Assembly (NCBI GenBank): GCA_037133395.1
Contig: JBAXOG010000005.1
Location: 985 to 64,984, forward strand
DNA: 64,000 nt
Direction of reading: 5' to 3'
Source: a bacterium
GTDB lineage: Bacteria > Verrucomicrobiota > Kiritimatiellia > RFP12 > UBA1067
The position numbers were made by a program, and so were the translations under genes. The notes below the pieces were generated by a model. The model searched no databases. It was given only the letters and a program-made list of their open reading frames with translations, and was not told the origin of the DNA. Positions within the stretch are counted from its first letter, which is position 1. Every line of letters begins with the position of its first letter. Of the stretch, positions 24,332 through 31,535 are shown piece after piece.

Positions 24332-24478
24332 AGTAGCGGGCAAAGCCCGCATGAGGAGGAGCTGACAGGGAAGCGAATCGTGAAATGCTGGGCGGAGGCG
24401 GTCGTTGCGATAGGTGTTTTGTCCGTTCCTTTTTTATCAGCGATTTTCCCTCGGATTTGAGCGCTTTTAAAATGCGCC
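24332..24478 (+). repeat. Dead copy 1 of the 5' end (hairpin, SD and signal-peptide region) of the beta-helix lipoprotein gene, plus a shared junction of roughly 36 bp
   Basis: Near-identical to 28842-28986, and to 29750-29866 as far as atcagcg. The gene's start codon reads ACA here. The extension cgattttccctcggatttgagcgcttttaaaatgcgcc is shared only with copy 2. Confidence 0.8.
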
Positions 24479-24565
24479 TGTGGGATGCTAGGGTTCGAAA
24501 CTCCACACGTTCCTCTTAAAAATTATGGTTGTACTCACGCACAAGTGTGATACTATTTACTGGCA

Positions 24566-24853
24566 ATGAAGGTTATGACAAATGATTGGAGCAACGACAC
24601 CATCCCTTATATCTGTTGGGATCGCGAGTGGACAGTTGCGGATATACGTGAGAGACTGCATTCCGAGCAGGGAGTAGAGCGACACCGGCTCATGGCGTGG
24701 CTGATGCGAGAGCTGAAGACCCCCGAGGTGTGGTATTTTTTGACTCCCACTGAAATCAAAGAGGAGTTTGACCAGATTAGTCGCTGGCTGGGACCAGCAA
24801 GACCTTTATGGAAATATCTTTTAAGGATTTGGCATGAACTGGGAAAAATCTAA
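24566..24853 (+). CDS. Small protein, putative cognate antitoxin of the downstream nucleotidyltransferase (family unassigned)
   Basis: 95-aa ORF that overlaps the downstream AbiEii-like gene by 20 nt. Its composition is AT-richer than the flanks. No motif was recognised. Confidence 0.4.
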   Translation: MKVMTNDWSNDTIPYICWDREWTVADIRERLHSEQGVERHRLMAWLMRELKTPEVWYFLTPTEIKEEFDQISRWLGPARPLWKYLLRIWHELGKI

Positions 24854-25490
24854 AGCGATAACACCTCTAAAAAGGGAGTTCCTCAAGGCCTTCTTTTCGC
24901 GGGAAAAAAGGTTTTTTCTTACAGGGGGGAGTGCTCTCGGCCTATTTTATCTTGAACATCGTTTCTCTTACGATCTGGATCTCTTTTCGAAGGAACATGT
25001 TGACTGGCTAGAAATTGATGGCGTTGTGCGGCTTTGTTCACGGGAGGTGGGAGCAAGTGTGCAACTGTTGAGGGATGCCCCGACGTTCAGGCGCTATTGC
25101 CTCGAAACGGAAGGAGGCAAAGAGATTGTTGACATCGTTGTGGATATCAGCCCCCAAGTAGATCAGAAAAAACAATGGATTGACAATATCCAGGTTGATA
25201 CCCTTCGCGAAATTATGCTTAACAAGATAACGACATTGATAAGTCGCTGCGAAGTTAAAGATATCGTTGACCTTTATTTTTTAGAGCAGGAAGGATTTGT
25301 CATTGAGGAGTGTTTCGAAGATGCGCAATTGAAGGATGGCGGTCTTGACCCTTCAATGATCTCTCTTATTCTGGATTCTTTACGAATTACAGAGTTGCCG
25401 GGCTATATGATTAAGCCGTTAACGATCACCGATTTGCGTGATTATGTTACTCGTTTGAAAAATCGTATGGCACTGCTGGCTTTGCCGTAG
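24834..25490 (+). CDS. Nucleotidyltransferase, AbiEii/AbiGii-like toxin family (short form)
   Basis: FFLTGGSALGLFYLEHRFSYDLDLFS matches the GG....(S/T).D.D signature. 218 aa. Confidence 0.6.
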   Translation: MNWEKSKAITPLKREFLKAFFSREKRFFLTGGSALGLFYLEHRFSYDLDLFSKEHVDWLEIDGVVRLCSREVGASVQLLRDAPTFRRYCLETEGGKEIVDIVVDISPQVDQKKQWIDNIQVDTLREIMLNKITTLISRCEVKDIVDLYFLEQEGFVIEECFEDAQLKDGGLDPSMISLILDSLRITELPGYMIKPLTITDLRDYVTRLKNRMALLALP

Positions 25491-25720
25491 CATTTTGCGA
25501 AGCGAATACGCTTGTTCCTTATTGAAAATTCAAAATTCAAAATTCGACGTTCAATGTTCGATGTTGGATATTCGACCTGTCCGCCGTAGGCATCGCGAAG
25601 GTGGATGTTCGTATTAATTCGTGTTTGTTCTCGCCATTCTGATGCTAAGAAATTGCCAGTTTCGAGTTTCAATTCTCCGCATTCCCTCTTTCTTTTCGCC
25701 CTTCGTCTCGCGTCTGTAAC

Positions 25721-25771
25721 TTTACGTAAAGCCAGAAACCCGTTGACTATTTTCCGACGATTTGATTAAGT
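25721..25771 (+). promoter_or_regulatory. Conserved PATR-gene promoter block P2
   Basis: TTTACGTAAA at 25721-25730, a 12-nt gap (gccagaaacccg), TTGACT at 25743-25748, a 17-nt spacer of different sequence, TTAAGT at 25766-25771. Confidence 0.65.
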
Positions 25772-28986: not shown

Positions 28987-29089
28987 TCCATAATTAGAAT
29001 TGCTGGCTTTACATTGCTGCGGAGGACAAGTAAAATTAAAAATTATTGGTAAGAAATGTTTATAGGGTCGTTTAAATAGAGGAGTACGG

Positions 29090-29326
29090 ATGCCGAAAAT
29101 ATTTGAAAATGACGGGTTTCGGTTTTTCTTTTATAGCAATGATCATGAGCCGATTCATGTGCATGTGTGGCATGGTGGTGGTGAAGCGGTTTTCAAGGTG
29201 TCGGCTGATGAGGTTGAACTGAGGGAATCGCTTAATATGAAAGTGGGAGATTTGTCGCGGGCACGTCAGATGGTGATTGAAAATAGGAAGTTGATTCAGG
29301 AGAAATGGTATGAGTTTTTCAAATAA
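29090..29326 (+). CDS. DUF4160-family small protein
   Basis: MPKIFENDGFRFFFYSNDHEPIHVHVWHGGGEAVFKV matches the DUF4160 N-terminal pattern (M..I....G.....Y..DH.P.H.H). 78 aa. Confidence 0.7.
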   Translation: MPKIFENDGFRFFFYSNDHEPIHVHVWHGGGEAVFKVSADEVELRESLNMKVGDLSRARQMVIENRKLIQEKWYEFFK

Positions 29327-29597
29327 ACAAGGGCTGATGTCGGCTTTCTATAGCGCTGGATTGATTGTTGTCCATTGTGGAAACGGGGTGGAGATTAAAT
29401 TTCCGGTACAGGGTAATCCGCGTCTTTCCAAGGGTACCCCCGACCAGCTCAACAAAATCGAAATCTCTCCATTTGGTTTACATTGGCCGGATTTGGATGA
29501 GGATCTCTCTCTTGAAGGACTTTTACAGGGCGATTATGGGCAAATGCAAGAGTATAGCTGCCGCATCGCCGAGCAGCCGAGCGGGTATAGGGCATAG
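29310..29597 (+). CDS. DUF2442-family small protein
   Basis: ..NPRLSKGTPDQLNKIEISPFGLHWPDLDEDLSLEGLL matches the DUF2442 C-terminal pattern. It overlaps the DUF4160 gene by 17 nt, which is the usual pairing. Confidence 0.7.
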   Translation: MSFSNKQGLMSAFYSAGLIVVHCGNGVEIKFPVQGNPRLSKGTPDQLNKIEISPFGLHWPDLDEDLSLEGLLQGDYGQMQEYSCRIAEQPSGYRA

Positions 29598-29780
29598 GTG
29601 TTAAGCTAAGGAGAGATATTTGTTGCCAACACCAAAAGGCTGGCAATATACAGCGATTTCTAATTAAAGAGGTTAACGCAAAAACCGCAAAGAGATAGCG
29701 TGGCTATAGGGGTCCGGCGGACCCGCACGGGGTTTCATTAAAATTTGGATAGCGGGCAAAGCCCGCATGAGGAGGAACTG

Positions 29781-31535
29781 ATGGGGAAGCGAATCGTGAA
29801 ATGCTGGGCGGGGGCGGTCGTTGCGATAGGTGTTTTGTCAGTTCCTTTTTTCATCAGCGGGTGCCGTCTTGTAGCGAAAGAGCCAGCGAGAATAGTTCAC
29901 AAAGGACCAGGAACATCTTTCGATCTGCAAGGCTTCATCGACCACGCGCTCGCGGCGGGGCAAAAGCGGATTGTCGTGCCGCCGGGCCGGTATCGCGTGA
30001 AGCCGCAACGCCAATGTCATCTGCGGTTGCGCGACCTTCAGGATGTCGAGGTCATGGCCATGGATGTCGAGATGGTCTGTACCGAGACCACGCTGGCCCT
30101 GAATATCGACAACTGTCGCAATCTGGCGTTGCGCGGATTGACCATCGACTATGATCCGTTGCCGTTCACGCAAGGACGCATTGTTGCCATGGCACCCGAC
30201 AAAGCGTGGCTGGAGTTTGAGATCATCGACGGCTATCCCGAAAATCTTGAAATGCGGATCGAGATCTTTGACCAGCGCACCGAATTGCTCAAAGTCAATA
30301 CCCGCTACGATTGGGGGCCTTTCCAGTCCTTGGGCAATCACCGTTATCGCGTGTCACGCGGTTCAGGCCATCGTTTTGATCCCAATAAGGATTTGGAGGA
30401 AGTAGGCGATATTCTGGTGACCAACAGTTCGACTGCGCCCGGCGGGCAGGCGGGGCATGCGATTGTGACGTCTAATTCGCAGAAAGTGGTGCTGGAGGAT
30501 ATCCGGCTCTATGCCTCTAACTGTTTCAGCTATCTGGAACATGACTGCGATGGAAACACCTATCGCCGGTGTAGCATTGATCGCCGTCCGCTGGCAGAGG
30601 ATCTTCGGTCACGCGGGTTGCGACGCCTGCGCTCCAGCAATGCAGACGCTTTTCATAGCAAGCACGCAATCCGCGGACCGCAGATCATCAGTTGCACGGC
30701 GAAGTATCAGGGCGATGATTGCGTGAATATTTGCGGCGAATACTACATGGTCATGGGGAGTAGCCAGAATAAAATTCGCATGTTATCGCATCGCAACAGC
30801 AACATCTCTGTCGGCGATTCCGTTGAGCTGGTTTCGTATACGGGGGAACGTCTGGCAGATGCGAAGGTTGTTGCGATTGAAGCGGACGGCAAGGTCAAGC
30901 CTGAGGAGCAGACGTTTCTCAAAGCTCAGCACATGAACCAAGGCACAAAGGAAGTTCTGTCCAAGCCAAATACGGATGCCTGGACGCTGACACTGGATCG
31001 GGCAGTGGACCTGCCGATGGGTTCCGTGGTCGCATCGACACGCCATACCGGCAACGGATTTTTGGTCAAGGATTGCGATTTCGGTTTCAACCGTTCGCGC
31101 GGTATCCTCATCAAGGGCAGCAACGGGCAGGTCATCGGTAACCGTCTGACAGGCTGTTGGATGGCCTCCGTGTTGGTCGCGCCTGAATGGTGGTGGCTGG
31201 AGTCGGGCAGTAGCAGCGATCTGGTCATCGCAGACAATCAGATTACCGACTGCCGCGCAACAGCCATTGAGGTCGTAGCCCGTGGCGGCACCGGAGCGCT
31301 CGCGCCGAGCGGCGCCCACAAGAATATTGCCATCCGTAACAATACGATTCTGAATTCACCACTGCCCACTATTTACGTGTCTTCAACGGACAGACTGGTG
31401 ATTTCCGGCAATCAGTTTAAGCCGCTGGATCCCTCGCTGAGTCGCTTCCGCTGGGGAGAAAAAAAGCCGGTTGCGATTGTGACCGAAGCGTGCAGTCAGA
31501 CCGAAGTGCAGCCGGAAGGAAACAACACATTATGA
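29781..31535 (+). CDS. Right-handed beta-helix lipoprotein; paralogue of 3680..5518
   Basis: The ORF track gives 29745..31535. ATG 29781 follows AGGAGG (29770-29775) after 5 nt. The leader is MGKRIVKCWAGAVVAIGVLSVPFFISGC (lipobox ISGC). It carries LRGLTIDYDPLPFTQGRIVAM and later NRSRGILIKGSNG / IADNQI / IRNNTI turns. Confidence 0.7.
   Translation: MGKRIVKCWAGAVVAIGVLSVPFFISGCRLVAKEPARIVHKGPGTSFDLQGFIDHALAAGQKRIVVPPGRYRVKPQRQCHLRLRDLQDVEVMAMDVEMVCTETTLALNIDNCRNLALRGLTIDYDPLPFTQGRIVAMAPDKAWLEFEIIDGYPENLEMRIEIFDQRTELLKVNTRYDWGPFQSLGNHRYRVSRGSGHRFDPNKDLEEVGDILVTNSSTAPGGQAGHAIVTSNSQKVVLEDIRLYASNCFSYLEHDCDGNTYRRCSIDRRPLAEDLRSRGLRRLRSSNADAFHSKHAIRGPQIISCTAKYQGDDCVNICGEYYMVMGSSQNKIRMLSHRNSNISVGDSVELVSYTGERLADAKVVAIEADGKVKPEEQTFLKAQHMNQGTKEVLSKPNTDAWTLTLDRAVDLPMGSVVASTRHTGNGFLVKDCDFGFNRSRGILIKGSNGQVIGNRLTGCWMASVLVAPEWWWLESGSSSDLVIADNQITDCRATAIEVVARGGTGALAPSGAHKNIAIRNNTILNSPLPTIYVSSTDRLVISGNQFKPLDPSLSRFRWGEKKPVAIVTEACSQTEVQPEGNNTL

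Follow-up and report, generated by a model that had tools for sequence, protein, structure and literature searches.

Putative toxin-antitoxin modules beside duplicated starts of a lipoprotein gene in a freshwater Kiritimatiellia genome

How toxin-antitoxin (TA) and small defence modules move without a mobility gene is poorly understood. Integrative elements such as e14 or phage 21 in icd of E. coli, and islands that target tRNA genes, rebuild the end of the gene they enter. The Vibrio superintegron is a chromosomal integron cassette array rich in TA cassettes. At rhs, cdiA and mafB loci, C-terminal ends are displaced and remain as orphan modules; the accepted driver of this is homologous recombination by way of the end they share. 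Restriction-modification (RM) units insert with long target duplication, as Nobusato et al. reportedly described in 2000. A cycle of insertion with long target duplication, repeat-driven amplification and release has been proposed for RM units (Furuta et al. 2010, PMC2853133), and the DUF4160/DUF2442 pair dhiTA of Dickeya dadantii is an experimentally validated type II TA system (PMC8198452). The locus described here lies in a 64,000-nucleotide stretch (the window) of contig C5, from a 5.04-Mb genome (G000) of a freshwater member of the Kiritimatiellia. It holds one intact and two dead copies of the 5' end of a beta-helix lipoprotein gene; each dead copy is followed by the same junction sequence (J) and then by a different small cassette with a putative TA module. 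We give about an even chance to the reading that TA modules are captured and shuffled here without a recombinase, by way of the duplicated gene start; movement of the cassettes probably relies on ordinary homologous recombination and needs no integrase. The locus is of value as a clean natural example with demonstrably portable cargo, for its flanking repeats made of a gene start, and for junctions in environmental populations that are candidates for excision or amplification.

The features of the locus, in order along the window, are:

22230-24263 (+): SASA-type carbohydrate esterase gene (Pfam PF03629), the left neighbour, ending 66 bp before copy A
24329-24442 (+): copy A, a dead 5' end of the lipoprotein gene, with hairpin GCGGGCAAAGCCCGC at 24336-24350, a Shine-Dalgarno (SD) sequence, ACA at 24365-24367 and a 1-nt deletion ahead of 'atcagcg'
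24443-24478 (+): J, copy 1, 36 bp, including GCGCTTTTAAAATGCGC
24479-24517 (+): 39-nt spacer between J and the portable part of cassette 1
24518-25490 (+): cassette 1, a portable module with its own upstream region, a gene for a 95-aa protein of no family (24566-24853) and an AbiEii nucleotidyltransferase gene (24834-25490)
25491-25798 (+): array of repeats with a 7-nt period and a motif like repetitive extragenic palindromes (REP-like), then a conserved PATR promoter/leader block (about 25627-25798)
25799-28723 (+): PATR surface-protein gene, with its start called at 25880 in public assemblies
28724-28835 (+): native intergenic leader with a hairpin of CACGAAG units (28765-28831)
28836-28949 (+): copy B, a dead 5' end at the ancestral gene-start position, with the hairpin at 28843-28857, ACG in the place of the start codon (28872-28874) and the 1-nt deletion also seen in A
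28950-28985 (+): J, copy 2
28989-29610 (+): cassette 2, a portable module of dhiTA type, with a promoter-like site (29008-29036), a putative DUF4160 toxin gene (29090-29326) and a DUF2442 gene (29310-29597)
29590-29744 (+): X2, the right flank of cassette 2, of which 29590-29707 match an inverted-repeat arm in metagenome contig L063
29745-31535 (+): copy C and the intact beta-helix lipoprotein gene, with the hairpin at 29752-29766, ATG at 29781 and lipobox FISGC

Each of the three copies comprises the hairpin, the SD sequence, the start codon position and 28 signal-peptide codons. A and B are 96-97% identical across 145-150 bp when J is included (24329-24478 against 28836-28985); a 150-bp match at 96% identity cannot be chance. 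C (29745-29866) matches both at about 95% over about 110 bp; B and C, taken as direct repeats of about 110-120 bp, are 96% identical. Divergence among the copies is 3-6%. The start codon is ATG in C (29781-29783), ACA in A and ACG in B. Both dead copies leave the gene sequence after 'atcagcg' and run into J, whose two copies differ at two positions; past J, the sequences on the A side and the B side are unrelated. The inserts between the repeats measure 0.8 kb and 4.4 kb. An earlier note on this DNA had reported three copies of about 110 bp, loss of the start codon in the two extra ones, a common break followed by a junction of about 36 bp, and divergence into AT-richer cassettes. These observations are confirmed, and the interpretation offered with them is partly supported.

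Across the whole genome, also with mismatches allowed, the fragment occurs three times and J twice, which rules out a genome-wide repeat family; the CACGAAG hairpin, the 7-nt array and the motif GGCATAGGTGTTAAGCT, unlike fragment and J, are dispersed in the genome. The search for further copies proposed in the earlier note yielded none, whether in the genome itself, among 40 relatives or by exact scanning of two public collections (metagenome contigs and genome contigs). ARAGORN and Rfam detect no tRNA or other RNA in or near J, and 'GGTTCGAAAC', which follows J in A, is not a tRNA fragment. Similarity of the left flank of A to X2 does not rise above shuffled sequences (164/500). The 31-aa peptide that an ATG-bearing fragment plus J could encode is not on record in an exact-protein look-up. 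Annotators should note that a short, dead gene start whose SD sequence and hairpin are intact can be mistaken for a small open reading frame (ORF); such starts also break assemblies.

Lipoprotein orthologs (84-87% nucleotide identity) have ATG, the in-frame 'ttc atc agc' and the signal peptide as in C. Because they match C, the two changes common to A and B, T to C in the start codon and loss of 1 nt, are derived. A and B share these derived, inactivating defects as well as J, and therefore form a clade; the dead fragment with J has a single origin and was copied later to a second place, where cassette 1 follows. Two independent target duplications are not supported, since one of the two dead copies derives from the other. 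The orthologs themselves fall into two N-terminus types, MxxHTxLG... and MxxRxMKxW....

Comparison within the window and with relatives indicates which copy stands in the native place. Three stretches of the window (642-5518, 25799-...-31535 and 35813-41374) show the same succession of PATR gene, CACGAAG-unit hairpin, small GC hairpin, SD sequence and beta-helix gene. Copy B is preceded by a leader with 80% identity to that of the beta-helix gene at 39608, part of the paralogous PATR/beta-helix pair 35813-39400 / 39608-41374, and the homology continues unbroken into the fragment; therefore, B occupies the native gene-start place. B marks the ancestral start of the lipoprotein gene, with J and cassette 2 lying between it and the intact copy C. 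Some 110-120 bp of the gene's 5' end thus stand on both sides of cassette 2 as direct repeats. On its right side, X2 (29590-29707) is 87% identical, in inverted orientation, to one inverted-repeat arm directly upstream of the lipoprotein ortholog in L063, and is therefore native-type intergenic DNA. The homology of cassette 2 to metagenome contig L031 stops at 29610 and the homology of the flank to L063 begins at 29590. Both points lie within GGCATAGGTGTTAAGCT, which follows gene stops elsewhere and may be the right-hand crossover site for cassette 2.

L063 is a contig of JGI 3300028178. At 2655-3025 it carries an inverted-repeat element of about 350 bp, resembling a miniature inverted-repeat transposable element (MITE), with terminal GGCATAGGTGTTAAGCTAAG, between a GLAA-B gene and the lipoprotein ortholog; X2 in the window corresponds to one surviving arm of such an element. 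The terminal motif also follows gene stops at C142:8460 and C165:3381 of G000.

In relatives, the slot between the PATR and lipoprotein genes holds a 566-aa GLAA-B-type gene, a 1054-aa beta-helix gene or, in L062, nothing; TA pairs upstream of PATR promoters are also found in L028 and L031. The interval is a slot prone to recombination. L062, from another species with a lipoprotein gene 84% identical, contains a PATR remnant, the hairpin and a single gene start with no cassette. The remnant (L062:7543-7800, ENA ERZ27280308) is an 85-aa ORF with the PATR promoter block and the C-terminal tail PPKGTLVSLF; it looks like an internally deleted PATR gene and lies directly upstream of the lipoprotein ortholog. 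The leaders and first 13 or so codons of neighbouring beta-helix genes (otherwise 22% identical in amino acids) are 78-88% identical within a genome and different between genomes. Examples are L063:811-927 with 3071-3190, L029:2515-2586 with 4718-4787, and 39449-39622 with 28724-28880 in the window; these leaders are under concerted evolution by gene conversion.

The cargos are two unrelated, self-promoted, putative TA modules, as judged from their domains and upstream regions. Cassette G+C is 0.40-0.49 against 0.57-0.65 in the flanks. In cassette 1, the AbiEii gene matches PF08843 at 1.7e-12 and the PADLOC AbiEii model at 1.1e-15. Its 95-aa partner has no match in Pfam, NCBIfam or PADLOC; the cassette thus shares the nucleotidyltransferase with AbiE type IV systems and differs from them in having, upstream, this small protein without an AbiEi match where those have an AbiEi-type antitoxin with a winged helix-turn-helix (wHTH). 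In cassette 2, DUF4160 (PF13711) is matched at 1.8e-16 and DUF2442 (PF10387) at 1.1e-14. The putative toxin gene comes first and the two genes overlap by 17 nt; domain pair and gene order agree with dhiTA (PMC8198452), but similarity to DhiT is weak (27 bits with the NCBIfam model, against a cutoff of 100). Cassette 2 also has a conserved upstream region of about 100 bp with a promoter-like site that fits at 10 of 12 positions.

Both cassettes occur elsewhere. Cassette 2 recurs in two other species. In G002, a closed genome, it is 94.7% identical and stands behind REP-like DNA, 2.3 kb ahead of the lipoprotein ortholog; in L031 it is 93.4% identical and precedes a PATR promoter. For the same genome pairs, identity of the lipoprotein genes is only 86%. 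At four-fold sites, divergence is 0.10-0.13 in cassette 2 against 0.33 in the lipoprotein gene for these pairs (Fisher p = 0.0004, 0.002), and the common ancestor of the cassette is therefore much younger than that of its hosts. Cassette 1 is found at 94% identity in two genomes of other genera (G111 and G009), between 45-bp tandem-repeat arrays. The two cassettes are independent modules travelling between species. Fragment and J are absent from all these other cassette sites, and the fragment is therefore not an intrinsic end of the TA modules. The suggestion in the earlier note that the cassettes are mobile units carrying the gene fragment as their end is borne out as far as discrete, portable cassettes (93-95% identity elsewhere) are concerned; the fragment as an end is not, as neither fragment nor J is found elsewhere and no common right end exists.

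A search for common right ends of the two cassettes, or for an inverted copy of J, gave nothing. J is not significantly similar to the flank upstream of cassette 2 in L031 or G002 (p about 0.4-0.7); J plus the spacer of copy A, compared with L031, gives p of about 0.06, which was not used. The two cassette 1 contigs from different genera, L057 (G111:C273) and L058 (G009:C94), share a stretch of about 2.9 kb at 97% identity that includes the cassette. In L057 (reverse-complemented), 45-bp tandem-repeat arrays at 3298-3411 and 5280-5393 flank this island.

The arrangement is reproduced in independent assemblies. The full order (esterase gene, A, cassette 1, PATR gene, B, cassette 2, C, lipoprotein gene) is present in L025, a 16-kb SPAdes contig of another assembly that differs at one position in 16,004 bp. 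Two NCBI contigs of metagenome-assembled genomes and many MEGAHIT and JGI contigs hold parts of this order, with three haplotypes overall. Single-nucleotide differences tell the copies apart, and the SPAdes, MEGAHIT, NCBI and JGI contigs together exclude an assembly artefact, the collapse or duplication that the earlier note had allowed for.

Two short contigs from two samples (L040 and L043) join X2 to fragment and J. In L040 (1002 bp) the order is fragment-J-cassette 2-X2-fragment-J; the contig opens and closes with the same 93 bp, and its period of 909 bp is exactly the spacing from B to C. L043 begins in X2 and runs through the fragment into J and cassette 2. In both, the fragment is a hybrid of C type on the left and B type on the right, and the cassette sequence is that of the chromosomal haplotype V. 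The crossover lies between 'tagcGggc' and 'gaGCtgaCG' in L040 (the first 25 or so nt, from hairpin to SD sequence) and between 'cgtGaaa' and 'ccgTtcc' in L043 (the middle 45 or so nt). The difference between the two intervals points to homologous and not to site-specific exchange, as far as two contigs can tell. The order X2-fragment-J suggests the junction of a 909-bp circle or of a tandem copy, as recombination of B with C would yield, and thus that the fragment repeats still recombine in natural populations. For the Campbell-like integration with target duplication put forward in the earlier note, the part that stands is that the repeats act as a recombination substrate; one specific site with a dedicated recombinase does not stand, as the crossovers differ.

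No recombinase or transposase domain is found in any major ORF of the window, as the earlier note had stated, and contig C5 has no match to the tyrosine recombinase family PF00589; nine PF00589 loci lie elsewhere in the genome. Among known processes, the locus comes closest to the insertion of RM units with long target duplication: it has small, lower-G+C units of addiction type, no mobility gene, and long direct repeats of locally single-copy sequence. The repeats of both B/C and A/B exceed 30 bp, and the inserts are shorter than 20 kb with no integrase or transposase. It differs in that the cargo is TA and not an RM gene pair, and the duplicated target is a gene 5' end (leader, start and signal peptide) whose displaced copy is silenced. 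Moreover, a second displaced end with its junction precedes another cassette, and an empty site is seen only in a different species.

As in integrative elements of the e14/icd type, the gene stays intact thanks to one copy of its end, and the far side of the insert bears a displaced partial copy. Here, however, no integrase lies in or next to the element, the repeats are 5' and not 3', and the insert is shorter than 1 kb; the crossovers vary instead of sharing one fixed strand-exchange core, a point that rests on two contigs. The likeness to integron arrays consists in small TA cassettes that each stand behind a near-identical repeat of about 150 bp. Unlike in such arrays, there is no IntI (and no PF00589 match on C5), no attC architecture (R''-L''...L'-R'), and what is repeated is a gene start; the cassettes bring their own promoters, with a promoter-like site in cassette 2 against the promoterless norm, and the locus is no integron. 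In addition, a resident 2.9-kb gene lies inside the 'array', which has only two units. With rhs, cdiA and mafB loci the locus shares successive gene-end copies beside newly acquired modules. It differs in that the N-terminal end is concerned, the cargo does not supply a new tip for the same protein, and the host is a lipoprotein gene of a glycan locus and not a toxin gene.

The best-supported course of capture by way of the gene start would be as follows. A TA module with J would enter the first 28 codons and duplicate a target of about 110-120 bp, a step that matches insertion with long target duplication (PMC2853133); the upstream copy would then be silenced. The 110-bp repeats would serve as homology arms for host recombination of RecA type, which could loop out a 909-bp circle or amplify the unit in tandem. 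The circle, consisting of dead fragment, J, cargo and a right flank (X), or a transformed fragment could re-enter any genome with this gene start by a single crossover of Campbell type. With a dead start codon and a frameshift in the arm, the lipoprotein gene would stay functional only if the crossover fell to the left of the start codon; such crossovers would hand the defects of the arm to the displaced copy, which would explain the defects common to A and B. If the junctions are true, the proposed cycle of insertion with long duplication, amplification and release would extend from RM units to TA modules and gene 5' ends.

More speculatively, and in our judgement unlikely in this strong form, fragment and J would be a portable 'adaptor', with which recombinase-less TA minicircles below 1 kb home to a specific gene start through a homology arm with a dead start. 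Equally tentative is the corollary that host recombination integrates, excises and amplifies such circles, that cargos can be swapped behind the adaptor, and that the host gene survives only when the crossover falls in the leader. If true, this, together with the other gene-end duplications of the genome, would amount to a general recombinase-free route for TA and defence modules.

Several points weigh against capture and shuffling by way of the gene start. The position of A and J, 66 bp behind the esterase gene and before a different cassette, is not explained by any simple model, nor does the model account for two different cargos starting directly behind the same 36-bp J, for which no donor sequence was found. 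The junction contigs are short and give contig-level evidence only; chimeras formed in PCR from fragments containing B and C could mimic the hybrids, and L043 (ena:ERZ27271936:k141_437435) ends at 563-596 in a Nextera adapter (CTGTCTCTTATACACATCT...), a sign of untrimmed reads. No empty site of the same species was found in scans of metagenome contigs or in exact-protein look-ups (queried with the lipoprotein, DUF4160, DUF2442, AbiEii, the 95-aa protein and the 31-aa fragment-plus-J peptide), so that duplication on insertion is only inferred. Finally, most relatives have another beta-helix gene between the PATR and lipoprotein genes, and the interval from B to C may be the former slot of that gene.

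The same facts can be given a static explanation, in which one or two old illegitimate recombination events and a small segmental duplication of fragment and J left scars. Nothing would be mobile now, and the junction contigs would be library or assembly chimeras, or a fixed tandem in one strain. We hold this to be possible, though well short of likely. It accords with the identical arrangement in three haplotypes and every long contig, with a divergence of 3-6% among the copies (time has passed), with the adapter sequence in L043 and with the missing empty-site contig. It has difficulty with two contigs from two samples that show the same kind of junction with different crossovers, and with the closure of L040 on itself at exactly 909 bp, with a cassette of the chromosomal V haplotype. 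In addition, 141-mers that span X2, the 110-bp fragment and J require real molecules, and the cassettes have clearly moved between species recently. The former-slot argument leads to a further alternative, to which we give a rather low probability: B would be the orphaned 5' end of a lost 'middle' beta-helix gene, with its leader and first codons gene-converted, and J and cassette 2 would have replaced the body down to the repeat element after the stop. Contigs L028, L029, L031 and L063 do carry a beta-helix gene of 566-1054 aa in exactly that slot, the leaders of middle and lipoprotein genes have been homogenised within a genome (L063: 87.5% across 120 nt; L029: 78% across 72 nt), and the X2 element follows the stop of the middle gene in L063. 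However, homogenisation in the relatives ends at about codon 13, but the match between B and C extends to codon 28, takes in the hydrophobic core specific to the lipoprotein and stops exactly at J; J resembles no middle gene, no remnant of one is left, and A would still require a separate event.

A site-specific system is the least probable of these explanations, and we consider it very unlikely. The cassettes would be integrase-less satellites or integron-like cassettes, moved in trans by a tyrosine recombinase of the genome that recognises the hairpin or the palindrome in J. The break of both dead copies at the same nucleotide into the same palindrome-bearing J would be expected on this account, two small palindromes bound the unit, and the nine PF00589 loci could supply the enzyme. 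Against it stand the different crossover places of the junction contigs, the lack of a common right end or inverted J, and the absence of J and fragment from the rest of the genome, from the relatives and from the collections. Furthermore, the same cassettes occur elsewhere without J, they carry their own promoters and have no attC-like R''/L''/L'/R' organisation, and the point mutations common to A and B indicate copying, not repeated capture.

Self-comparison of the genome reveals further small modules between locally unique direct repeats, which counts in favour of capture by way of the gene start. In C43, a second case of 5'-end duplication, a direct repeat of 84 bp (6439-6522 / 7309-7392, 89% identity) comprises the SD sequence, GTG and about 25 codons of a 373-aa gene and surrounds a Phd/YefM-like and PIN_3 TA pair; the displaced copy of this 5' end retains its start codon, and J is absent. 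A search for the empty site in 25 relatives found no ortholog of the 373-aa host gene. In C11, an inserted YhcG/DUF1016 PDDEXK nuclease gene is followed by a second copy of the last 80 or so nt of cydB, the gene for cytochrome bd subunit II (33196-33291 / 34628-34724), a 3'-end displacement without a recombinase. Within the window, direct repeats of 277 bp (8422-8698 / 10846-11122; 98.6% identity, unique in the genome) flank a DUF6577 and AbiEii pair (8944-10805), beyond which a PATR promoter follows at about 11237. Within the repeat lies a fragment of a wHTH gene on the reverse strand, and the borders carry the 26-nt motif ggtacagggggacagacaatgcttac three times. Direct repeats at C43:30319 / 32369 flank a pair of wHTH and nucleotidyltransferase genes.

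An AAA_14 + DUF4143 ATPase gene (56392-57711 of the window) lies between the GH127 and GH43 genes of a glycan cluster. A similar ATPase gene at C104:13768-14943 has 96-bp direct repeats on either side and a tyrosine recombinase gene nearby. The LacI ortholog that precedes the PATR/lipoprotein module in relatives is split in G000 across contig ends (the end of C102 and C29:35925-36416), and the part in C29 is followed by a paralogous promoter block, a PATR gene and a beta-helix gene; the lipoprotein module of the window therefore stands in a different context than in G003 and L028.

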